A stretch of DNA of 64,000 nucleotides. Source: an uncultured virus (IMG/VR IMGVR_UViG_3300008120_009089). Lineage: Duplodnaviria; Heunggongvirae; Uroviricota; Caudoviricetes. The position numbers were made by a program, and so were the translations under genes. Positions 4,630 to 64,000 of this stretch are shown piece by piece. Position 1 is the first letter of the stretch. Every line of letters starts with the position of its first letter. The stretch lies in the IMG/VR virus record IMGVR_UViG_3300008120_009089; one strand, given 5' to 3'. Under the pieces are notes generated by a model that did no database searches, had not been told where the DNA came from, and saw only the letters and a program-made list of their open reading frames with translations.

Positions 4630-5679
4630 ATGACTAGGGAAGAATTTTTAGAAAGAGCACGTGATAAGCATGGATATAAATATGAATATCCAAATTTGAA
4701 AGATAAAGTATTATCAACTGATGATATAGATATAATCTATAACGGTGAACTATATAGACAAAAAGTTGTTAAGCACATAACATTGGGTCGTTGTCCAGAG
4801 AAAAATACACCAACAAAAACCACCGAGCAATTTATTAAAGAAGCTAAAGAAGTTTGGGGTGATAAATATGATTATTCATTAGTAAAATATAAGGGAGCTC
4901 TTAAAAAGGTTAAGATAATATATGATGGTCTTATATTTGAACAGGTCGCTATTTCTCATTTACAGGGACAATGTTGTGAAAAAAATTTAACCAAAGATAA
5001 TTTTATAAGAAAATCAATAAATAAACATGGTGATAAATACGATTATTCTATGGTTAAATATATATCAGGTGATATTCCTGTTTTAATAGGATATAAAGGT
5101 GTGTATTATTTACAAAAACCATATAATCACATAGGTGGTTCTAAACCAGAGAATATTGAATTATCAGTAAGAAAGACAACTAAAAAGTTTATACAAGAGG
5201 CTAATTTAGTTCATGATTTTAAGTTTAGTTATGATAAAACTGATTATGTTAAGAATCAGATTAAGGTTATAATTACTTGTCCTATACATGGTGATTTTAA
5301 TCAAACTCCACTTTCACATTTACAGGGTAATGGTTGCCCTAGTTGTAGTGAATCTCGTGGTGAAAAGTTAATTTCTAAATATTTGGATAAGAATGATATT
5401 TCATATTATAGACAGCATAAGTTTCCTGATTGTAAGAATATATTTCAATTACCATTTGATTTTTATTTACCGAAATACAGAACTATAATAGAGTTTGATG
5501 GTAAACAACATTATGAGCCGATTGAACATTTTGGTGGTTTAGAGGCTTATGAGCGTTTAAAGGTGAATGATAAGATTAAGAATGATTATTGTGAGGATAA
5601 TTATATTAATATAATAAGAATTAGATATGATCAGATTGATCGTATTTATTATATATTAAATGAGAGTTTAAGATTATAA
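4630..5679 (+). CDS. putative homing endonuclease (KYDYS-type repeats plus C-terminal PD-(D/E)xK/DUF559-like nuclease)
   Basis: Repeated F..KA...HG.KYDYS units, CPIHG..CPSC, LPFDFYL..IEFDGKQHY. Confidence 0.8.
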   Translation: MTREEFLERARDKHGYKYEYPNLKDKVLSTDDIDIIYNGELYRQKVVKHITLGRCPEKNTPTKTTEQFIKEAKEVWGDKYDYSLVKYKGALKKVKIIYDGLIFEQVAISHLQGQCCEKNLTKDNFIRKSINKHGDKYDYSMVKYISGDIPVLIGYKGVYYLQKPYNHIGGSKPENIELSVRKTTKKFIQEANLVHDFKFSYDKTDYVKNQIKVIITCPIHGDFNQTPLSHLQGNGCPSCSESRGEKLISKYLDKNDISYYRQHKFPDCKNIFQLPFDFYLPKYRTIIEFDGKQHYEPIEHFGGLEAYERLKVNDKIKNDYCEDNYINIIRIRYDQIDRIYYILNESLRL

Positions 5680-6096
5680 ACTAATACATACACAATAGTA
5701 ATCATATCCTTGATGACCTCTTAATAAAGGTTGTTCATACAAAACTTCCACTTTATAATTAGGATATTCGTCTTTTAGGTTATTTATAGCACCTTCCAAT
5801 TTAAGAAGGAATTCATTTGTTATTTTATTAAATTCAATAAAGTCGGATATTTCTCCTTTATATCCATCTGCTGTGAATTTCACTTCTAACTCAGGACAAT
5901 TTATAAATACTCTACAATCTGTTGGGTTTCCACTTTCGGTTACTTCTTCAAGTGTTTCTGAATTGCCCCAACGGAATTCACCACATTCATTATCTTCATT
6001 ATATGAATATTCCACTAAATCAGTGAAACAATGTTTGATATACTCAACATCAATTGAATTATCGGTATTTTCGTTAAATTTTCTTAGGTGTTTCAT
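5674..6096 (-). CDS. MKHLRKFNE-tag protein (paralog of 6476..6868)
   Basis: N-terminal tag; shares IEYIKHCF.DL and LKDEYPNY with 6476..6868. Confidence 0.7.
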   Translation of the reverse strand: MKHLRKFNENTDNSIDVEYIKHCFTDLVEYSYNEDNECGEFRWGNSETLEEVTESGNPTDCRVFINCPELEVKFTADGYKGEISDFIEFNKITNEFLLKLEGAINNLKDEYPNYKVEVLYEQPLLRGHQGYDYYCVCISL

Positions 6097-6479
6097 ACTT
6101 TATATTCAATATTTATTTTTAACTCACCAATTCTATTTACAATGAAGTTAACTTCATTTCCTTCACTTTCTATATCTTTAATTATGGCGTTTATACTATT
6201 AAGTGTTTCTTGTTTAATTCTTAATATTTCCATCTCATTTTCAATTGACGCTTTTAAAAAACCAGCATTTCCATATGGTGATCTATTCCATAATTTACCT
6301 TCAACAGGTTCCAATTTAACTTCAACATAAACACATTGAACACCTTCCACTCTTATTGGTTTTGCTATCAAAATATTAACATTATAGTAACCACTCTCTG
6401 AGATATCAGCAAAAAGTGTTTCTAGATATGATTTAGTTTCATCTTCAAAACTTTCATTAAATTTTCTTAGGTGTTTCAT
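6093..6479 (-). CDS. MKHLRKFNE-tag protein
   Basis: N-terminal tag, ATGA-coupled to neighbours. Confidence 0.7.
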   Translation of the reverse strand: MKHLRKFNESFEDETKSYLETLFADISESGYYNVNILIAKPIRVEGVQCVYVEVKLEPVEGKLWNRSPYGNAGFLKASIENEMEILRIKQETLNSINAIIKDIESEGNEVNFIVNRIGELKINIEYKV

Positions 6480-6868
6480 TTTTTATTATTTATATTTATC
6501 TGGAAGTAGTCATTTGGTCTATCATCATCCTCTTCGTAATTTATTTCAATATTATAATTAGGATATTCATCTTTTAATCTTTTGATTGAGATATCAATTG
6601 ATTTAATAATATGTGATATTCTTTCAGAATTACCAATCATTCTTTCAAAAGTTCCACCCTTAGTTATTCTAGGGATATCTATGGTTAAATCAACATATTC
6701 GTCATTAAGTGTGATTTCATCGTTTGGATTATCACGTAGATAATCTTCATGTGTATCATATTCTACATCACATTCTGGATCATCTGATAAGTCATTAAAA
6801 CAATGTTTGATATATTCTATATCAAGATGCTCATTTATACTTTCGTTAAACTTTCTTAGGTGTTTCAT
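6476..6868 (-). CDS. MKHLRKFNE-tag protein
   Basis: N-terminal tag. Confidence 0.7.
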   Translation of the reverse strand: MKHLRKFNESINEHLDIEYIKHCFNDLSDDPECDVEYDTHEDYLRDNPNDEITLNDEYVDLTIDIPRITKGGTFERMIGNSERISHIIKSIDISIKRLKDEYPNYNIEINYEEDDDRPNDYFQININNKK

Positions 6869-33694: not shown

Positions 33695-34370
33695 AGTTTA
33701 TATAAATGTTGCTGTGATGGGTTCTGTTAATGAAGTTTTGACAAACCTATTAAATAGAATTAAAGATAGTAGTTTATACGAAAATTGTGATGTAATCAAT
33801 TTAGTCATTAATGGTGATATAAACTTATTAAAGGTGAATTTAGATGATCCTAAATATAAAATTTGGAATAAATATAAAGATACTTCATATAATGAGTTTC
33901 CAACTTTAGATCTAATTTGGAAACATTCACAAGACGAAGATTTCAATGTTCTTTATTTACACACAAAAGGAGTAAGTAGAAATCATCCTTTTATAACGGA
34001 TTGGACTAATTACTTATCTTATTTTAGTATAAATAAATGGGAAGATAGATTAGAAGAGTTAAAAGAGAATGATTGTACTGGTGTTAATTTAAGAGGTAAT
34101 CCAGAAGATATCAAATTTCATCCTATGTATTGGGGATATGGTAAAGCCCCTAAACATTATTCTGGTAATTTTTGGTGGAGTAAATCTTCACATATTAAAA
34201 ATTTATGTAATCCAATCACTTGGATGCCTAATAATGATTATCTGAAATGGAGAATGATGTGTGAAATGTGGGTTTGTCAATTACCAGAATCAAAATACTA
34301 TAATGCTCATACATCAGATGTTGATCATTACCAAAATCCATATCCAGGAGAATTATATGAAACAGTTTAA
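33687..34370 (+). CDS. putative glycosyltransferase-like protein
   Basis: EFPTL, YLHTKGV, HYSGNFWW motifs; cluster context. Confidence 0.55.
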   Translation: MNRVYINVAVMGSVNEVLTNLLNRIKDSSLYENCDVINLVINGDINLLKVNLDDPKYKIWNKYKDTSYNEFPTLDLIWKHSQDEDFNVLYLHTKGVSRNHPFITDWTNYLSYFSINKWEDRLEELKENDCTGVNLRGNPEDIKFHPMYWGYGKAPKHYSGNFWWSKSSHIKNLCNPITWMPNNDYLKWRMMCEMWVCQLPESKYYNAHTSDVDHYQNPYPGELYETV

Positions 34371-34518
34371 TCCCAGTGATGAGTTATCGAAGTTACTTTC
34401 TCAAGAATTAGCTAAGTCTATTGATAAAGAAATTATGAATGAACTATTTAGACTTTTTCCAAAAGTAACAATGAGTAGAAGAAATAAAATTAATAAAATA
34501 TACAAAAAAGGTGATTAA
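34357..34518 (+). CDS. 53-aa mini-protein: major-capsid-like helix plus RRNKINKIY tail
   Basis: ATG 34357, MKQFNPSDELSKLLSQELAKSIDKEIMNELFRLFPKVTMSRRNKINKIYKKGD. Confidence 0.6.
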   Translation: MKQFNPSDELSKLLSQELAKSIDKEIMNELFRLFPKVTMSRRNKINKIYKKGD

Positions 34519-50215: not shown

Positions 50216-50245
50216 CAAAAAACCAGTCAATGACTGGTTTTTTTT
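50216..50245. terminator. bidirectional terminator
   Basis: aaaaaaccagtca-a-tgactggtttttt. Confidence 0.8.
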
Positions 50246-50870
50246 ATTCATTATCTATTGATATAATATAATCTATTAGAGATTTGATACTATCAAACTT
50301 TTTAGTTCTATATTGAACGAGATATAATTCATTCTCACTAACATAATTAACCTTATGATCATAATCTTCTAAATGTTCATATTGAACACCAAACTGAACA
50401 ATATCTTTATGTTCACCATTTATTGTATAATTAACTCTTTTTAAGTTATCACCTAAAAATTTCATACTTTTTATGATTAAATCTAAATCAGTATTATCGA
50501 AATAGAATTTACTTAATTTAAAAGCAAATTGGTTTGTATCTGGATTAAATCCAGATGTAAAAAAACCTTTAAGTTGTTCAAAATACTTATTTGAGATATT
50601 ATATTTTTTACTCGTTGTTCCATGACCGTGTTCAAATATCCAATCACATTGTTCTTTATTAAAATCAAATATACTAACCGGTAATGACTTAGAATGAGAT
50701 TCTTCACCCTCTTCTTTTCTTTTTGTTAGAACAGCATTTATATCTCTAATTTTATCACCCAATTCGTTATATTCAATTCTTGACCAATGTAATAACTCTT
50801 CAAGATCCTCTGTATCCATTGAATCATAAGAATGAACTTTATTTTCGTTATAACTCTTTATGTATTTCAT
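50244..50870 (-). CDS. MKYIKSYNE-tag protein
   Basis: N-terminal tag. Confidence 0.65.
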   Translation of the reverse strand: MKYIKSYNENKVHSYDSMDTEDLEELLHWSRIEYNELGDKIRDINAVLTKRKEEGEESHSKSLPVSIFDFNKEQCDWIFEHGHGTTSKKYNISNKYFEQLKGFFTSGFNPDTNQFAFKLSKFYFDNTDLDLIIKSMKFLGDNLKRVNYTINGEHKDIVQFGVQYEHLEDYDHKVNYVSENELYLVQYRTKKFDSIKSLIDYIISIDNE

Positions 50871-51835
50871 TACTTTATATTTTTATTTTCATAATTGTGG
50901 TTTAATGTAATTCTCATAAATGTTCTACGTTTACCTTTACTAATCAAAAGAGTTTCATGTGGTGTATTACTTGACATAAAATACAATTGATTCTTTTCAA
51001 ATACAACTTTTCTATCATCGGTCAATTGTTCTTGCATTTTTTCAAATGAACCTTCTCCTAAAATCTCACCATAGAACTCACCACTCCAAGCCTGACACCC
51101 AACTTCAGTTGATACAGTTAGAATACCTCCTTTACTTTCAGACACATAATCAGCAATTGGAATAATAACATCTTTATACGGTAATACCCAATCCATTTTA
51201 ACATGAGAGTTATCAGACTTAGCTTCATATTGATACTCTTTTATACGAGCACCTCCCCAACTTGGTTGTGGTTCAGCACCACCCCAAGAAGCTTTAAAAT
51301 CATCATCGTACCTAGCACCACCCCAACTTGGCTTTGGTTCAGCACCACCCCAACTTGGCTTTGGTTCAGCACCACCCCAAGAAGCTTTAAATTCATCCTC
51401 GTAATCTTCAACATCATCGAAGAAATCATCACTTAAAACATCATCAACTTTTGTCTCGTTTAATTTTTTGAAGTTAGGATCAACACAAAAATTACCATCA
51501 ATATGAACTCCTTCTCTTCTAAGAAACTCATCAGTTGTGAAGAATTTAGTATCAATTGTAACATAGTGTGTATTCGCGCCTTCTTGTAGAGGTATATTTT
51601 TAATTACTTCATTAAAAGCTTCCTCCCATATTTTAAATCCTTCGGGTAAAGAAACCCAACCTCCTGTATTTTCAAATGGCATAACACTTAATTTAAAATC
51701 TCCAAACTCTGGATCTGGTAAAATAACTTCACCTAGATTTTTAACATTAGTTCTGTGATAGTTAACATTTTCTATCAATCTAACATTATTTCTTAAACTC
51801 TCTTTAAAATTTTCAATATTTTTCAAATACTTCAT
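50870..51835 (-). CDS. putative 2OG-Fe(II) oxygenase-fold protein with internal SWGGA repeats and N-terminal tag
   Basis: RREGVHIDG (HxD), TPHE (distal His), RTFMRIT (2OG-binding Arg). Confidence 0.55.
   Translation of the reverse strand: MKYLKNIENFKESLRNNVRLIENVNYHRTNVKNLGEVILPDPEFGDFKLSVMPFENTGGWVSLPEGFKIWEEAFNEVIKNIPLQEGANTHYVTIDTKFFTTDEFLRREGVHIDGNFCVDPNFKKLNETKVDDVLSDDFFDDVEDYEDEFKASWGGAEPKPSWGGAEPKPSWGGARYDDDFKASWGGAEPQPSWGGARIKEYQYEAKSDNSHVKMDWVLPYKDVIIPIADYVSESKGGILTVSTEVGCQAWSGEFYGEILGEGSFEKMQEQLTDDRKVVFEKNQLYFMSSNTPHETLLISKGKRRTFMRITLNHNYENKNIK
51245..51392 (-). repeat. five SWGGA peptide repeats (27-nt unit, nested duplication)
   Basis: FKASWGGAEPKP-SWGGAEPKP-SWGGARYDDD-FKASWGGAEPQP-SWGGARIK. 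Confidence 0.9.
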
Positions 51836-51866: not shown

Positions 51867-52768
51867 TTAAATATCAGATTTATATTTCCATATATAACCA
51901 CCACTAGATTTTGATTTACCAGTACAAACACTTCTTATACCCTGTGTCAATATACCCAAATCAACAGAGGCTGCTTTATATTCTCATACTCTTTTATGAA
52001 ATTTCCATTTAAATCATATTGATATATCGGTTTGAATTTATCACCTCCTTTATTAAAACTAACCGGTGTTAGATCACCTTCAAATCTCCACACATATCCA
52101 CCAACCATTTTAACTTTATTCTTACAACATTTTGATATATTGCCATGTGATAGGTTATTTATTTTAGAAGCGTTATTTATTGAGGGGTAAATATTTATTA
52201 AATTCATATCAATATCATACTGATAAACCGATTTACAGTCTTGTATTAAGATATCATTTAACTTTTGTTCTTCTGTTTTAGAATCCTCATATCTTTTATT
52301 AGATATTCTTAATTTATCACGTTCTTCTTCTTTACTAAAACGTTCTTTAGCTTTAATACTCAATTCTTTCTTAGTTTCCTCTGATAGAATAAGTTTATAG
52401 TTTTTATACCTTTCAATCTGTGATTCAGACATTTTTTTCTTTGTTTCATCGGACATTTTTTTATTCTTATTTCCACCTGAGTCCGTATTTGTCAGAGGAT
52501 GTCCCTCACTTTTAAATTTATCAATCCAATATATTTCTCTTTCGCATACCTCATTATATGATAATATATTCTCCTCAATTGACTCAATTATAGGTTTTAA
52601 ACCATTTAATTTTAAACTTTTAACCCAATTTGATTTATGAGATTTTGAGTTTTCCGAATAATGAGATTTAAGTCTTTGTTTTAAATCATTAAATGTTAAT
52701 CCAATATATCTAATTTCATTAGATATTGGGTCTATGAGCTTGTATATAGTATATTTTATTTCTTCCAT
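51867..52768 (-). CDS. GIY-YIG homing endonuclease with NUMOD repeats; -1 frameshift near 51975 in the last NUMOD1
   Basis: IYKL.DP...IRYIGLT, E.YWI, LTN..GG; the last domain is completed in another frame (VCTGKSKSSGGYIWKY, stop 51867). Confidence 0.8.
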
Positions 52769-53692: not shown

Positions 53693-53869
53693 ATGAAAGG
53701 GAAAATTAAAATCGGAAAAATTACACAAGAGCAAATCTTAACAGTTTATAAGAAAGCGTCTAGAGAGATGGAATTAGAGAACTCTACTGGTTGGGTTGCT
53801 AAACATAAAGTTCATAAATCAGCTAAGAACTATACAAGAAAAGATAAACACAAAGTTAGCTTTGTATAA
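53693..53869 (+). CDS. small basic protein, ArfA-like (alternative ribosome rescue) C-terminal motif
   Basis: Not in the ORF track. 58 aa ...KKASREMELE...KHKVHKSAKNYTRKDKHK; follows TATATTTG (53665). Confidence 0.5.
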   Translation: MKGKIKIGKITQEQILTVYKKASREMELENSTGWVAKHKVHKSAKNYTRKDKHKVSFV

Positions 53870-53870
53870 T

Positions 53871-53900
53871 AAAAAAAGAGAGAATTTAATTCTCTCTTTT
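53871..53900. terminator. bidirectional terminator
   Basis: aaaagagagaatt-t-aattctctctttt. Confidence 0.8.
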
Positions 53901-54072
53901 ATTTTGAATATATTTTTCTAATTTTAGATTGTCTATTTGAAATTATCCATCGTCTCAATTCTTCAATGAACAAATTATCTGGGTATATTCTACCATTATT
54001 CCTATTCATTCGATCAAATTTTTGTAAAACTCCGTGTAAAATATATTTACCATCAACTATTTCTACTTTCAT
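53899..54072 (-). CDS. 57-aa mini-protein: prohead-protease N-terminal fragment plus RQSKIRKIY tail
   Basis: Not in the ORF track; ATGA overlap with the dnaJ stop; [57 protein letters not shown]. Confidence 0.7.
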
Positions 54073-55139
54073 ACTTTAAATGTATTTGAGTTTTTAAACT
54101 TCTCTAAAATCATTCTTTCATCAAGTGGAATATCTTTTGGTATTTTCAAATTAAATTTTATATAAAGATCTCCTAAACCATAATTTAAGTCTGGAATACC
54201 TTTACCTGAAATTCTAATTGTTTTCCCGTGTTCTGTTCCAGCTTCAACTAAAACCGGTATATCACCATGTGGTGTTGATACAGTTATATTATTACCACAA
54301 AGAGCATCTATAACAGATATTGTTTTTTCTACAACTATATTATTACCTTCTCTTTTGAATGAGAAGTCTTGAGCTTCTTCTATAATAATAAAAAGATCAC
54401 CTGGTATTCCATTTCTAACATCATTTCCATTACCATTCATTTTCAACTGCATTCCATTTGAAACACCTGCTGGTACTTGAATATCAACTACTTGTTCTTG
54501 TAAAGTAGTACCATCTCCATGGCAATGATTACACTTATTGTGAATTTGTTCACCAGAACCTCCACAATCTGGACAATGTGTTTGAGTTCTTACTTGTCCA
54601 AATGGTGTATTTTGAACAACAACTCTTTGTCCTGTTCCATTACAAACTAAACATTCTCTTACATCAGAACCTCCTTTTCCATCACAAGGATTACATTTTA
54701 CTTGTCTTCTGTATTTTAATTTTTTAGTTGTTCCTTTAAGTATCTCATCAATATTAACAACAACTTTAATTCTTAAATCACCACCTTTTTTAGTTCTTTG
54801 TCTTTGTTGTTGTCTTCCACCAAAAGGATTACCACCAAAGATATCACCAAACTGTGAAAATATATCATCCATTGAAAATCCGTGACCACCACCAAATGGA
54901 TTACCTCCTCCAAATGGATTACCACCAGTTGAACCAAATCTATCATAACTCTGGCGTTTAGAAGGATCGCTAAGAGTTTCATAAGCTTCAGCCGCCTCTT
55001 TAAATTTAGCCTCTGCTTCTGGATTATTAGGATTTTTATCTGGATGAAACTGCATAGCCATCTTACGATAAGCTTTTTTAATTTCATCATCAGTTGCTCC
55101 TTTATTAACTCCTAAAATAGTATAATAGTCTTTATTCAT
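54069..55139 (-). CDS. dnaJ: chaperone DnaJ
   Basis: J-domain HPD, G/F region, four CxxCxGxG repeats. Confidence 0.96.
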
Positions 55140-55151
55140 TTTTTAGATTTT

Positions 55152-55478
55152 TTATTTTAATATATTATTTAGTAATATGTCTCTTTTAATAGATTTAAGA
55201 GGTTCATTAAATCTTATTTTTGTATTTGAATTATAATCAAACCAAAATGAATCATTTTCATAAGTAGTCCAATTATAATCTTTTTTTGTATGAAATCTTA
55301 AAATTGGTAGTTTATTCATAATATCTCTACATAGTTCAATGATTTTATCTTCATCAAACTCTTCCTCATCTATTTTATTAACCTCATCACAAAAGTAGTC
55401 CATTACTTCACCAACAGTCTCATTAACTACTCTTAAATAGTTTTTATCTGTTCTAGTACTTTCGATATACCAATTCAT
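55152..55478 (-). CDS. hypothetical protein, C-terminal KRDILLNNILK
   Basis: ORF plus shared motif. Confidence 0.6.
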   Translation of the reverse strand: MNWYIESTRTDKNYLRVVNETVGEVMDYFCDEVNKIDEEEFDEDKIIELCRDIMNKLPILRFHTKKDYNWTTYENDSFWFDYNSNTKIRFNEPLKSIKRDILLNNILK

Positions 55479-56011
55479 TTTAATGTCTTTTTAAGTTTCA
55501 AATCTCTTATCTCTAATTTAATTTCATCATATGTTTTATTTCTACAATTAGAAATCATTTTGTTTATATAGTTTTGACAAACTAAGTTTAAAGTTTCTAT
55601 ACCCATATCTAAATACTTAAACTCTATTAAACAATTTTTAATTTTTGGTAGAAAGTCAACTAAATAGTTGATAAAATCATCAACATCCCAATATAGTTGA
55701 AATAATTCTAGCTTTTTATCACCATATTCCGAGAAATTAAATAAAGTTGGTTTGTTTATAAAAACCATAGACCAAGTTTTTCTAATGGCTGGTATGATAA
55801 GTACTTCTAGTTCATCCTCATCATCACCAATTTTACCAGATAATAAACTAAAAACCTCAATTCTATTATCTAAAACATATTCTAAATCAGATTTAAGATT
55901 TGATTTTAATTCATCATCAACACCAGTAAGCATAGAATCAACAAGACTTTGTTTATATAAGTCTTGTTGTAATAATTCTATAAAGCTTTTTTTGTTTACT
56001 GGTAAGTTCAT
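55475..56011 (-). CDS. hypothetical protein, C-terminal IRDLKLKKTLK
   Basis: ORF plus shared motif. Confidence 0.6.
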   Translation of the reverse strand: MNLPVNKKSFIELLQQDLYKQSLVDSMLTGVDDELKSNLKSDLEYVLDNRIEVFSLLSGKIGDDEDELEVLIIPAIRKTWSMVFINKPTLFNFSEYGDKKLELFQLYWDVDDFINYLVDFLPKIKNCLIEFKYLDMGIETLNLVCQNYINKMISNCRNKTYDEIKLEIRDLKLKKTLK

Positions 56012-56538
56012 TATTCACCTAATATGATTTTAGGATATCTAAATGGTTTACCATCTAATGTATATCCCTTACTAACAACATCAACAATTTTCTTTTCACC
56101 AATTGGTAAAATTGATATAACTTCGTGTAAATCAGTATCATACTCTTCAGTTTGAATAGTTTCAATTCCTTGACCTTTTAAAAACTTTTCAATTTTAGAA
56201 GCGATTAACTCAACACCTTCTCGAGCTGAATCATCTTTAATATTTTTGATTGCTAAAGAAATATCAGAGTCCATATCCAAAATAGAAGTAATCATAGAAA
56301 CTTTTGTATTATTTCTTAATTCTTCTTTTTCTTTGATAACTCTTTTTTTATAGTTATCAAATTCAGCAGCTAATCTTAAATAATTATTATTTGATTCTTT
56401 TAATTGTTCTTCTAAATGAGAAACGTGTAGTCTTGGATTATCTTCTAATACAATTTCTTCATTCTTACCAGTTAAGTCAAGACCAACTTTTTGATCATCA
56501 ATTTTCATACTCTCTACTTCAATCTTTTTATCTTCCAT
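56011..56538 (-). CDS. grpE: nucleotide exchange factor GrpE
   Basis: YLRLAAEFDNYKKR, D.DLHE, V.KGY.L.GK..R. Confidence 0.92.
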   Translation of the reverse strand: MEDKKIEVESMKIDDQKVGLDLTGKNEEIVLEDNPRLHVSHLEEQLKESNNNYLRLAAEFDNYKKRVIKEKEELRNNTKVSMITSILDMDSDISLAIKNIKDDSAREGVELIASKIEKFLKGQGIETIQTEEYDTDLHEVISILPIGEKKIVDVVSKGYTLDGKPFRYPKIILGE

Positions 56539-57316: not shown

Positions 57317-57383
57317 ATGGAACAGACAAAATACAATCGGACATATCATCTACCTTGGTCACCAGGATCAACAAATGATGATA
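57317..57383 (+). pseudogene. orphaned 5' fragment of the RNA ligase gene
   Basis: MEQTKYNRTYHLPWSPGSTNDD versus MSKYPRTYHLPFSPGTTNDD at 58386. Confidence 0.85.
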
Positions 57384-58299
57384 ATTTATTTAAAACTAAA
57401 GAAGTTAAATCTTTAGTTTTTTTTATTTCACTTTCCCATATGTATATCACAAAATAACCTATTTCTTCCGCTTTTATCCTTTTATCTCTATCTTTATCCC
57501 ATATATCAGATACTTTCTTATAACCACCTGGGAATTTAATACTTTCATCTATATTATAGATCTCTGGATTACAATGCCAATAATCACCATTTACTTCAAT
57601 TAAAATGTTAGTATTCACTAACCTAAAATCAAATAATTTACCCTTTAGTGGGAATTGAGTTGTATATGATATTGATAGATTGTTAAGAACTTCTGATATT
57701 TTGGTTTCTAAATTAGATTTGCCATTATAATTAAATATTTTATTTTTTTGTTCATCATTTAAATTGTTCCAATATTTTTTAATTGATTCTTTTTGTTTAC
57801 ACTTTCTTATTTCATTTTCATCATCAGTTAAATTGTTCCAAGCAAAATTATTATCTATTATCCATTTTTTAAATTCATTATTTTTGAATATGTTATCAAC
57901 ACCATAATTTTTCATAAATGTGTCTGATTTTTTATTTTTAATATCCAATACCTTTGACACATTATCAACTCCATACTTCTCCATACAAGTTTTTTTATAC
58001 TTAATAGATGATATTAATTTTGAACTTTCTGAAATACTCCTCTTAGGTATTGAATAATACTCCAAAAGAAATATAAAAGATTTAAAATCGATATTAAAAT
58101 CATTTTTAATATCAACTAGACTTTTTAAATTCTCAACATAATTTAATGTAATAACCTCTCTTTTTGAAATATGTGGAAAATTTTTTTGAATAAACATAAA
58201 TTTTATTTCTCTTTTATCATTTGTAGTTTTTAATTTACAATGATATATGTGTGGGTTATTAAAAACCACAACATCACAAAAGGGACACTTTCTAATCAT
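57346..58299 (-). CDS. putative homing endonuclease (KYGVDN repeats plus DUF559/PD-(D/E)xK nuclease)
   Basis: KTCMEKYGVDN; FDF....LIEVNGDYWH...D..K...G..V.YIWE. Confidence 0.8.
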   Translation of the reverse strand: MIRKCPFCDVVVFNNPHIYHCKLKTTNDKREIKFMFIQKNFPHISKREVITLNYVENLKSLVDIKNDFNIDFKSFIFLLEYYSIPKRSISESSKLISSIKYKKTCMEKYGVDNVSKVLDIKNKKSDTFMKNYGVDNIFKNNEFKKWIIDNNFAWNNLTDDENEIRKCKQKESIKKYWNNLNDEQKNKIFNYNGKSNLETKISEVLNNLSISYTTQFPLKGKLFDFRLVNTNILIEVNGDYWHCNPEIYNIDESIKFPGGYKKVSDIWDKDRDKRIKAEEIGYFVIYIWESEIKKTKDLTSLVLNKLSSFVDPGDQGR

Positions 58300-62506: not shown

Positions 62507-64000
62507 ATGGCAAAAGACGTAATTATTGGAATTGACTTAGGAACAACTAACTCGTGTGTAGCAGTAGTTGAAGGTGGTGAACCAATCGTAATCAGTAATG
62601 CTGAAGGTAAAAGAACAACTCCTTCTATTATTTCATTTACAGAAAATGATAGAAAGATTGGTGATCCAGCAAAAAGACAAGCGGTTACTAACCCTAAAAA
62701 AACTATCTACTCAATTAAAAGATTTATTGGTAAAGATTTTAATGTTTGTAAAGATGAGGTAACTAGAGTACCTTATGAAGTAGTTTCAAACGGAGCTAAT
62801 GTACCTACTGTTAAAATCGATGATAGAAATTATACTCCACAGGAGTTATCAGCAATGATTCTTCAAAAGATGAAGAAAACAGCTGAAGATTATTTAGGAT
62901 ATGAAGTGAAAAGAGCGGTTATTACCGTACCAGCTTACTTCGGTGATGCTGAGAGAACTGCAACTATTGAGGCTGGTGAAATCGCTGGTTTAAAAGTTGA
63001 AAGAATTATCAACGAACCTACAGCAGCGGCTTTAGCGTATGGTTTAGATAAGAAAAACACAGACTCTAAAATTTTAGTATTTGACTGTGGTGGTGGTACT
63101 CATGACGTTTCTGTGTTAGAGATTGGTGATGGTGTATTTGAAGTAAAATCTACTGACGGTGATACTCACTTAGGTGGTGACGACTTTGATAATGCAATTA
63201 TTACTTGGATGGTTGAAGAATTCAAATCTGAAAACTCTATGGATTTATCAAAAGATCCTATGGCTTTACAAAGATTGAAAGATGCGGCTGAAAAAGCTAA
63301 AATTGAATTATCTTCTACATCTGAAAGTGAAATTAACTTACCTTACATCACAGCTAGAGACGGAATGCCTCTTCACTTTGTTAAGAAATTAACTAAGGCT
63401 AAATTTGAACAATTAACTTCATCTTTAGTTGATAGAGCTATCAGTTGTGCTAAATCAGCTTTGAAAAACGCAGGTTTAAAACCAGCTGATATTGACGAAG
63501 TTATCTTAGTAGGTGGTTCTACAAGAATTCCAGCAATTCAAGATGCTATTGAAAGTTATATTGGTAAGAAACCAAACAAATCCGTGAACCCTGATGAAGT
63601 TGTTGCTTTAGGTGCGGCTATTCAAGGAGCTGTTTTAACCGGTGGTATTACTGACGTTTTACTTTTAGATGTTACTCCACTTTCTTTAGGTATTGAAACA
63701 ATGGGTGGTGTGTTTACTAAATTAATTGAAGCAAACACTACTATTCCAACTAAGAAAAGTGAAACATTCTCAACAGCATCCGATAATCAACCTTCAGTAG
63801 AATTACACGTTTTACAAGGTGAAAGAGCGATGGCTAAAGACAACCGAACTTTAGGTCGTTTCCACTTAGATGGTATCATGCCAGCTCCAAGAGGAATTCC
63901 TCAAATCGAGGTGACTTTTGATATAGATGCTAATGGTATCTTATCTGTACACGCTAAAGATAAGGCAACTGGTAAAGAAAATAAAATCCGTATCGAAGGT
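62507..64000 (+). CDS. dnaK: chaperone DnaK/Hsp70 (runs off the window end)
   Basis: Not in the ORF track. [20 protein letters not shown]..., [37 protein letters not shown]. Confidence 0.97.

Follow-up and report, generated by a model that had tools for sequence, protein, structure and literature searches.

Organization of the locus

The window analyzed here is the whole stretch of 64,000 nucleotides taken from an uncultured virus of the Caudoviricetes (IMG/VR record IMGVR_UViG_3300008120_009089). It is contained in two virus records, G001 (126,978 bases, estimated to be 46% complete) and G002 (186,465 bases, estimated to be 69% complete); window and G001 differ by at least one base, at window position 2940 within a T homopolymer. 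The nearest named relatives are the uncultured phages LR745206.1 (634,780 bases, hereafter W01) and LR756502.1 (642,428 bases, hereafter W02), with identities to a 5-kb query of 71% over 59% and 69.5% over 56%, respectively. The head genes in these phages are of the T4 type, as seen for the Gp23 capsid protein (PF07068, E 2e-26), the portal (PF07230, E 1e-58) and the large terminase.

The end of the phage dnaJ gene is followed, in the same operon, by a mini-gene of 57 codons whose product joins an excerpt from the start of a prohead protease to a short C-terminal tail (Table 1). The ORF given in the preliminary description was reproduced with an identical translation and a TAA stop codon, and so was its ATGA junction, in which the mini-gene ATG (54072-54070) overlaps the dnaJ TGA (54071-54069). 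On account of this overlap the mini-gene is probably coupled translationally to dnaJ, and we infer that it is co-transcribed with dnaJ and expressed. In one metatranscriptome run a single contig of 237 nt was placed on the 5' end of dnaJ (54953-55190), and none over the mini-gene.

The terminator announced after the mini-gene was also found, as a hairpin with a stem of 12 bp (three G-C pairs), a loop of 3 and a T-run on either strand, which overlaps the mini-gene stop codon by 2 nt and would serve both the mini-gene and a convergent gene of 58 codons. The two sites returned by the hairpin scan are one and the same hairpin read on either strand; shuffled sequences gave 0.7 +/- 1.0. Read-through into a longer product by way of a recoded stop was considered and ruled out by the TAA codon, the terminator and the lack of protease sequence downstream. 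The AF2 model of the mini-protein, of moderate confidence (pLDDT 69), displays a hairpin at residues 2-13, a loop and a single helix spanning residues 32-56; a Foldseek search with this model gave no match at E<=0.001.

Table 1. Features of the mini-gene locus and other tail-bearing ORFs of the window (positions are those of the window).
Feature	Position	Strand	Evidence
57-codon mini-gene (protease-start excerpt plus tail)	53899..54072, TAA included	-	ORF translation; ORF of 50-63 aa in relatives
ATGA, overlap of dnaJ stop and mini-gene start	54069..54072	-	sequence; also in L014
Phage dnaJ, upstream gene of the same operon	54069..55139	-	Pfam DnaJ, DnaJ_CXXCXGXG, DnaJ_C
Putative bidirectional hairpin terminator, common to the mini-gene and the convergent 58-aa gene	53874..53900	both	hairpin scan
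Excerpt homologous to protease strand, NRN loop and start of first helix	53953..54054 (residues 7-40)	-	hmmsearch, hhalign, P0137 match, phrog_207
Common C-terminal tail, inside predicted helix 32-56	53902..53937 (residues 46-57)	-	tail census, codon variation, AF2
Second mini-ORF with the same tail flavour, ending ...SRRNKINKIYKKGD	34357..34518	+	tail list; start at an internal ATG inferred
108-aa operon protein ending in related tail ...IKRDILLNNILK	55152..55478	-	translation, tail list
178-aa operon protein ending in related tail ...EIRDLKLKKTLK	55475..56011	-	translation, tail list

The window also codes for GrpE, Hsp70/DnaK and homing endonucleases. The phage has an Hsp70 system of its own, with GrpE and DnaJ at 54069..56538 (-) and DnaK at 62507..64000 (+; HSP70, E 1e-226); the two proteins encoded between grpE and dnaJ bear the tail and have no known function. 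The convergent gene, at 53693..53869 (+), encodes a basic protein of 58 aa without family match, which is kept in W01 and in the related phage L014 (dN/dS 0.16). A free-standing GIY-YIG homing endonuclease gene with NUMOD1 and NUMOD3 (51947..52768, -) flanks the chaperone operon, and a second endonuclease-like gene (57346..58299, -; homing/HNH endonuclease by PHROG) lies on the other flank; both are missing from the corresponding stretches of W01, W02 and L014. A protein of 321 aa (50870..51835, -) has tandem SWGGAEPKP repeats within an acidic linker, and matches phrog_8970, a family with unassigned function.

Relationship to the head maturation protease

The protease of this clade is a protein of 699-707 aa, whose first 265 residues match phrog_207 "head maturation protease" (E 4e-30) and are followed by about ten acidic 14-residue repeats (scaffold). 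The preliminary description likened the mini-protein to the N-terminal segment of gp21-type proteases; this likeness is real but local, being weak for the single sequence and significant for the family profile. A check against Peptidase_S77 profiles had been proposed, and as a single sequence the mini-protein did not pass it: no Pfam hit was obtained at E<=1, PF03420 (Peptidase_S77) included, so that the sequence falls below the curated threshold, and phrog_207 was matched at E 0.09 over residues 7-38. A tblastn search with the 57-aa protein gave 152 weak matches (best E 0.3), located mostly at the N-termini of annotated prohead protease genes; among the matches listed, 32 of 40 bear a prohead or head-maturation name, and the identity of the excerpt to distant T4-type proteases ranged from 33 to 42%.

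The family profile, on the other hand, does match proteases. Built from nine members and run against the 1,083 ORFs of at least 150 aa from W01, W02 and G002, it placed the two proteases at the top (E 4e-5 and 3.3e-4), aligning protease residues 21-60, with the next match at E 0.069. When the W01 member was left out, the profile matched two of the 4,137 ORFs of W01, the mini-gene and the protease, and one of the 4,641 ORFs of W02, the protease. Comparison of the family with the W01 protease by hhalign gave P 7e-4 over residues 22-63, with an identity of about 26%. Moreover, a six-frame profile search of five further genomes recovered one mini-gene, together with a protease ORF of roughly 700 aa in four of the five (E 4e-4 to 8e-3), and a library-wide profile search matched protein P0137 (E 4e-5), which Pfam assigns to Peptidase_S77 (30.5 bits, cut-off 27). 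Among PDB sequences the profile found no gp21, its sole match (E 0.8) being due to chance. As judged by these profile comparisons, residues about 7-45 of the mini-protein are homologous to the protease N-terminus, comprising its strand, NRN-GRIYP loop and first helix.

The catalytic residues of Peptidase_S77 are His and Ser. That the region holding them is missing from the mini-protein, as had been pointed out, is evident from the alignment, which is limited to residues 21-63 of the 699-707 aa proteases. Conservation of the clade protease amounts to 82-89% in the best 80 of the 266 contig stretches that match it, yet the excerpt is only about 26% identical to this protein, and a word search for longer proteins containing words of the mini-protein returned none that is full-length; therefore the excerpt is old and independently evolving, and not a recent duplicate.

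A local remnant of a full-length protease was rejected as the origin of the ORF, as PF03420 finds none in G001 and no further protease-like sequence flanks the mini-gene. The full-length protease, which according to the preliminary description was to be sought elsewhere in the genome, was not found in G001 or G002 by tblastn with the W01 protease; it could not be located owing to the limited completeness of these contigs (46% and 69%). In G002, with 1,065 ORFs, the family profile matched only the mini-gene and one tail-bearing sister, the latter through its tail. The AF2 model of the protease N-domain, built from a shallow alignment, had a pLDDT of 41.8 and was set aside, and the predicted complex between mini-protein and protease N-domain, both taken from phage G005, scored 0.00 in a prediction run without controls, which weighs neither for nor against binding.

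Conservation and selection of the mini-gene

A word-based search retrieved four relatives of 57-61 aa with identities of 75-98%, and metagenome contigs yielded seven further ones with 46-75% identity in the best-matching segment; in the latter the frame is open for 59-99 codons from stop to stop and encodes 51-61 aa from the ATG. The family profile was then searched against 1.84 billion cluster representatives, giving 255 matches at E<=1e-3. The best 150 of these comprise 93 single-stretch proteins of 38-72 aa with the same design, 12 proteins of 82-162 aa, and 45 long repeat proteins that match through the hairpin half only and were judged false positives (the one examined, P0010, is a DUF5122 beta-propeller). 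The tail was present within the last 22 aa in 82 of the 96 small family members examined, and indels between members are in frame.

Values of dN/dS were 0.12, 0.17, 0.32 and 0.22 in four of the five measurable pairs. The remaining pair, window and L014, is the closest one, and here dN/dS was 0.75 and purifying selection is not evident, against 0.05-0.20 in the genes neighbouring the mini-gene in the same two phages. The test of conservation and dN/dS that had been suggested thus came out in favour of a conserved, selected gene in four pairs and not in the closest one. In this same comparison (L014 6001..6183) the mini-gene has a dS of 0.185, compared with 0.54-1.16 in four neighbour genes, whereas its dN is equal or higher; a rough Poisson estimate gives P 0.0001-0.015 for the dS shortfall. 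Possible explanations are rapid change of the protein, recent genetic exchange across lineages, and a constraint at the nucleotide level.

The protease mini-gene is carried by the phage of the window, L014, L016, L019, G005 and W01, and profile searches showed it to be absent from W02 and from four of five large related contigs; the mini-gene is dispensable, as its distribution is patchy. Relatives show short tailed ORFs, and not a frameshifted, tail-less remnant of a full-length protease. The view that this is not a decayed gene is therefore upheld by the existence of a family of like size and design, by its in-frame indels and by the dN/dS of 0.12-0.32 in four pairs: the mini-gene is a real, conserved and selected accessory gene and not a remnant, and belongs to a family that is widespread in huge T4-type phages.

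The shared C-terminal tail

The last residues of the mini-protein fit the consensus R-x-x-K-[IL]-x-x-[ILV]-[FLYW] (R-x-x-K-I-x-x-[IL]-[FLYW]). A census was carried out with the motif R-x(1,2)-[KR]-[IL]-x-x-[ILM] starting within the last 18 residues, and the motif was found in 125 of 971 proteins of W01, 126 of 995 of W02 and 23 of 244 of G002 (about 9-13%), which is 7.2-8.2 times the uniform expectation. Two flavours can be distinguished: a common one, hydrophobic-R-D-x-K-[IL]-x-x-[IL]-L, in proteins of 70-250 aa, and a basic one, R-K-x-K-I-[KN]-[KN]-I-[FLYW], in ORFs of 35-90 aa, to which the mini-gene of the window belongs. The earlier claim that the tail is common to other mini-ORFs was confirmed by this census and by the second mini-ORF of the window (Table 1). 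The body of that second mini-ORF is weakly capsid-like (phrog_138 major head protein, E 0.021) and aligns weakly to residues 352-375 of the capsid protein.

The codons of the conserved tail residues vary synonymously, which places the constraint at the protein level and rules out the tail as a DNA motif such as a promoter or terminator. The last hydrophobic residue depends on the genome, being F in 12 of 18 cases in W01, L in 10 of 10 in W02 and Y in 3 of 4 in G002, orthologous pairs included; this suggests co-evolution with one shared partner.

A second terminal motif is also distributed proteome-wide in these phages, at the N-terminus: M-K-[YH]-[IL]-K-x-[FY]-[NE]-E, counted in 19 of 246 ORFs of G002, 73 of 997 of W01 and 100 of 1,021 of W02. 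Window examples are found at 5674..6868 (-) and 50244..51835 (-), and the set includes three tandem paralogues beginning MKHLRKFNE.

Sister mini-genes built the same way

The slot after dnaJ is conserved and its cargo differs, being the protease start in the window and L014 and other bodies in W01 and W02. In W01 (L001 5025..5421; 460435..460831, -) dnaJ is followed by two overlapping mini-ORFs that bear the tail. The body of one, GD-x-YY...W, is similar to N-terminal regions in large PHROG families (phrog_8309, E 3e-5); that of the other reproduces scaffold repeats from the protease protein (51 aa at 55% identity; E 8e-15 by blastp and 2e-37 by phmmer). The overlapping mini-ORF after dnaJ in W02 has a GD-x-YY body.

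Elsewhere in these genomes, two mini-gene families copy capsid residues 494-548 and 410-460 (E 2e-10 and 1e-6 with family profiles, the two capsid proteins being the top matches), one mini-gene copies a stretch near protease residues 142-156 (two matches at E 0.01; phrog_207, E 0.07), and another a segment of DNA polymerase B (E 2e-4 by blastp-short, 0.008 by phmmer). Yet another resembles the Walker-A region of the terminase (E 0.03, with both terminases at the top), which is probably its parent. With one exception the well-supported parents are head or packaging proteins. For a tail-bearing mini-ORF of W01 (265897..266055), the reading as "polymerase motif B" was rejected; this mini-ORF copies the C-terminal INSYYSIY motif of G002 paralogues. 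Outside the window, G002 128640..138327 (-) contains five paralogues of 493-801 aa, which start with MTQ.KVGWR, end in ...INSYYS[IV]Y and alternate with proteins of 73-75 aa.

The association between tail and parent was compared with that of control ORFs. Bodies carrying the basic tail matched protease, capsid or DNA polymerase B at E<0.01 in 4 of 35 cases, against none of 101 small ORFs with the common tail and 2 of 551 tail-less ones (2 of 652 in total; Fisher p 8e-5); shuffled bodies matched any protein in 4 of 175 cases.

L016 and G005 have arrays of three to four mini-genes, flanked by NusG and dCMP deaminase. Both phages keep the same arrangement, in which NusG is followed by the capsid excerpt, the protease excerpt, a third mini-gene and dCMP deaminase, with overlapping ORFs. 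The third member of this cassette has no significant parent; the portal, top-ranked at E 0.13, is possibly the one. The 146 neighbours of 26 mini-genes are mostly metabolic or without assigned function, and not structural. A consistent link to homing endonucleases was not supported, given that these 146 neighbours hold one Pfam homing endonuclease, the GIY-YIG of the phage of the window, and one TnsA-like endonuclease.

Since several sister mini-genes consist of an excerpt plus the same tail, fragment-plus-tag is a design. The mini-gene of the window belongs to this class of tagged excerpts by its excerpt from a head or packaging protein within 35-90 aa, its common tail and the selection seen in its relatives; the overlapping or chained position in a non-structural region, typical of the class, was found in the window, L014, L016 and G005. 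A search of the literature, supplements aside, retrieved no description of genes for tagged head-protein excerpts, and as a gene design these are undescribed.

Possible functions

The reading that we favour, tentatively and with somewhat less than even confidence, is that the mini-protein acts as a tagged competitive mimic, most likely blunting the sensing of head-assembly proteins by the host. The excerpt would occupy the partner that normally recognizes this element of the protease, while the common tail would give a second contact, with a hub protein or with a surface common to all bearers of the tail; the purpose would be to blunt host sensing of head-assembly proteins, the prohead protease being a published trigger. 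The background for this idea, already invoked in the preliminary description, holds in the accessible parts of three publications: a review names the prohead protease as a reported CBASS trigger (PMC13276650), escapers of type I CBASS map to the scaffolding prohead protease, whose scaffold domain can trigger CBASS toxicity (10.1101/2023.05.21.541620; Richmond-Buccola et al.), and prohead proteases including T4 gp21 activate CD-NTases by cleavage of the activation loop (PMC12991175; Hobbs and Kranzusch 2026).

Several observations stand against such a decoy. What triggers CBASS in those accessible parts is proteolysis or the scaffold domain rather than the N-terminal element, and an excerpt with about 26% identity to the clade protease would be a poor mimic of the phage's own protein. 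The distribution is patchy, with the mini-gene missing from many relatives; some sister excerpts (terminase Walker A, polymerase motif) correspond to buried catalytic motifs, which are not obvious recognition surfaces; each genome has more than 100 unrelated proteins that end in the tail, which hence is not specific to decoys; and the closest pair, window and L014, has a dN/dS of 0.75.

A more general proposal, which we regard as possible though doubtful, is that huge T4-type phages hold a modular "excerpt-and-tag" set, in which elements of head and packaging proteins (capsid, maturation protease, scaffold, terminase and possibly portal) are each combined with one tail helix and expressed from non-structural operons. 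The products would blind or divert immunity that senses those proteins, and the tail would recruit all decoys to one partner.

The parentage of the sister mini-genes, head or packaging proteins in all well-supported cases but one, is also what would be expected of a regulator of head assembly in the phage itself, acting as a dominant negative or on timing, an alternative that we consider rather unlikely but the strongest of those weighed here. As a free peptide, the N-terminal element would compete for a contact that the protease uses in folding or oligomerization and restrain the enzyme outside the prohead, and the sisters would do likewise for capsid, portal and scaffold. Protein fragments often inhibit their parents by titrating native contacts, according to the accessible part of one study (PMC9245647), and the capsid mini-genes are nearest to the capsid of their own genome (W02, 50% vs 41%; W01, 39.5% vs 37.8%). 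However, the family is missing from many relatives that have the same protease, conserved at 82-89% among the best 80 of 266 stretches, the genes lie outside the structural regions, either downstream of dnaJ or in the interval from NusG to dCMP deaminase, and the identity of about 26% to the clade protease weighs against this alternative as well.

The occurrence of a basic tail on about a tenth of the proteome, in phages whose protease-scaffold protein has long acidic 14-residue repeats, brings to mind an internal head peptide. T4 loads internal proteins via a short shared peptide, and the tail would correspondingly be a capsid-targeting signal by which small proteins are loaded into a very large head, for instance onto the acidic scaffold repeats, and delivered with the DNA. 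We hold this to be improbable, as the T4 signal is N-terminal and cleaved whereas the tag is C-terminal, no invariant L/I-x-E site is seen when the family alignment is read by eye, and more than 100 species of cargo would be unusual.

The excerpt is at least as similar to distant T4-type proteases (33-42%, tblastn) as to the clade protease (26%), and the window-L014 pair evolves fast (dN/dS 0.75 vs 0.05-0.20 in neighbours); both points would suit a weapon against co-infecting related phages, in which conserved excerpts poison the assembly of the competitor and the phage's own diverged proteins are spared. There is little to be expected from this explanation, given that the scaffold and capsid mini-genes are nearest to the proteins of their own genome. 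Just as slim are the prospects of a chaperone-linked pseudo-client, whose tail would mark it for the Hsp70 system of the phage (DnaK, DnaJ and GrpE), so that the mini-protein regulates or primes the handling of head proteins. DnaK-binding peptides are basic and contain Ile/Leu, like the tail; GrpE and Hsp70 genes are nearby, and in four phages (window, L014, W01 and W02) the end of dnaJ overlaps with a mini-ORF bearing the tail, with three different bodies among them, but the protease mini-gene does not lie beside dnaJ in L016, L019, G005 and W01, and the common form of the tail often has acidic residues. Finally, a functionless relic or recombination by-product staying open by chance, as the very short length, the patchiness and the dN/dS of 0.75 in the closest pair could suggest, is highly improbable in view of the size and design shared by 93 of the best 150 family matches, the tail kept in 82 of 96 small members, the in-frame indels, the dN/dS of 0.12-0.32 in four pairs and the lack of flanking protease-like sequence.

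If the mini-proteins do act as competitive mimics, they would represent a novel type of counter-defence or of assembly control in phages, in which the phage's own conserved proteins are excerpted and tagged. They would also show, at the level of single residues, which parts of capsid, protease, scaffold, terminase and possibly portal are important for recognition, and the sensing of late phage proteins by bacteria would become directly testable. That roughly one protein in ten carries the tail points to a hub interaction in huge phages. Whatever the function, a family of at least 93 cluster representatives with a clear modular design had stayed unannotated.

Comparison with known systems

Among the closest known systems are the T4 gp21-type protease itself (MEROPS S77, PF03420) and the phrog_207 protein, with which the mini-protein shares the N-terminal strand, the NRN-x-R-I-Y loop and the first helix. 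The mini-protein differs in its length of 57 aa, compared with about 200 aa for the Peptidase_S77 domain, in lacking the catalytic His/Ser region and the scaffold repeats, and in bearing a foreign C-terminal tail; moreover, the gene is found after dnaJ and not among the head genes, and by domain length it lies outside that family.

The capsid-targeted internal proteins of T4 are comparable in that they, too, are small, belong to a T4-type phage and have one short terminal peptide in common. The T4 capsid-targeting sequence is N-terminal and is removed by gp21 at L/I-x-E. In the mini-proteins, by contrast, the shared peptide is a C-terminal helix with no evident cleavage site, and the bodies are excerpts of head proteins, which sets them apart from proteins defined by an N-terminal signal.

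C-terminal amphipathic helices target MinD and FtsA to the membrane, and MuA has a basic C-terminal ClpX signal. Compared by eye, these short basic-hydrophobic C-terminal segments are like the tail (e.g. ...KIKNIFGG); nevertheless, the basic residues of the tail lie partly on the hydrophobic face, and up to eight residues may trail the motif.

With respect to CBASS, the parent of the mini-protein is a demonstrated trigger, and phages escape by altering it (accessible parts of PMC12991175 and 10.1101/2023.05.21.541620). The triggers described there are the proteolytic activity and the scaffold domain, whereas the mini-protein holds neither.

Eukaryotic microProteins are short excerpts of larger proteins that act as regulators. 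Dominant-negative fragments (Savinov et al. 2022, PMC9245647, accessible part) are likewise short excerpts, and the mini-protein could, like them, compete for the contacts of its parent. In contrast to such fragment libraries, as that part of the study presents them, and to microProteins, the genes described here are natural phage genes that form families and arrays, draw on several head proteins and share a common tag.
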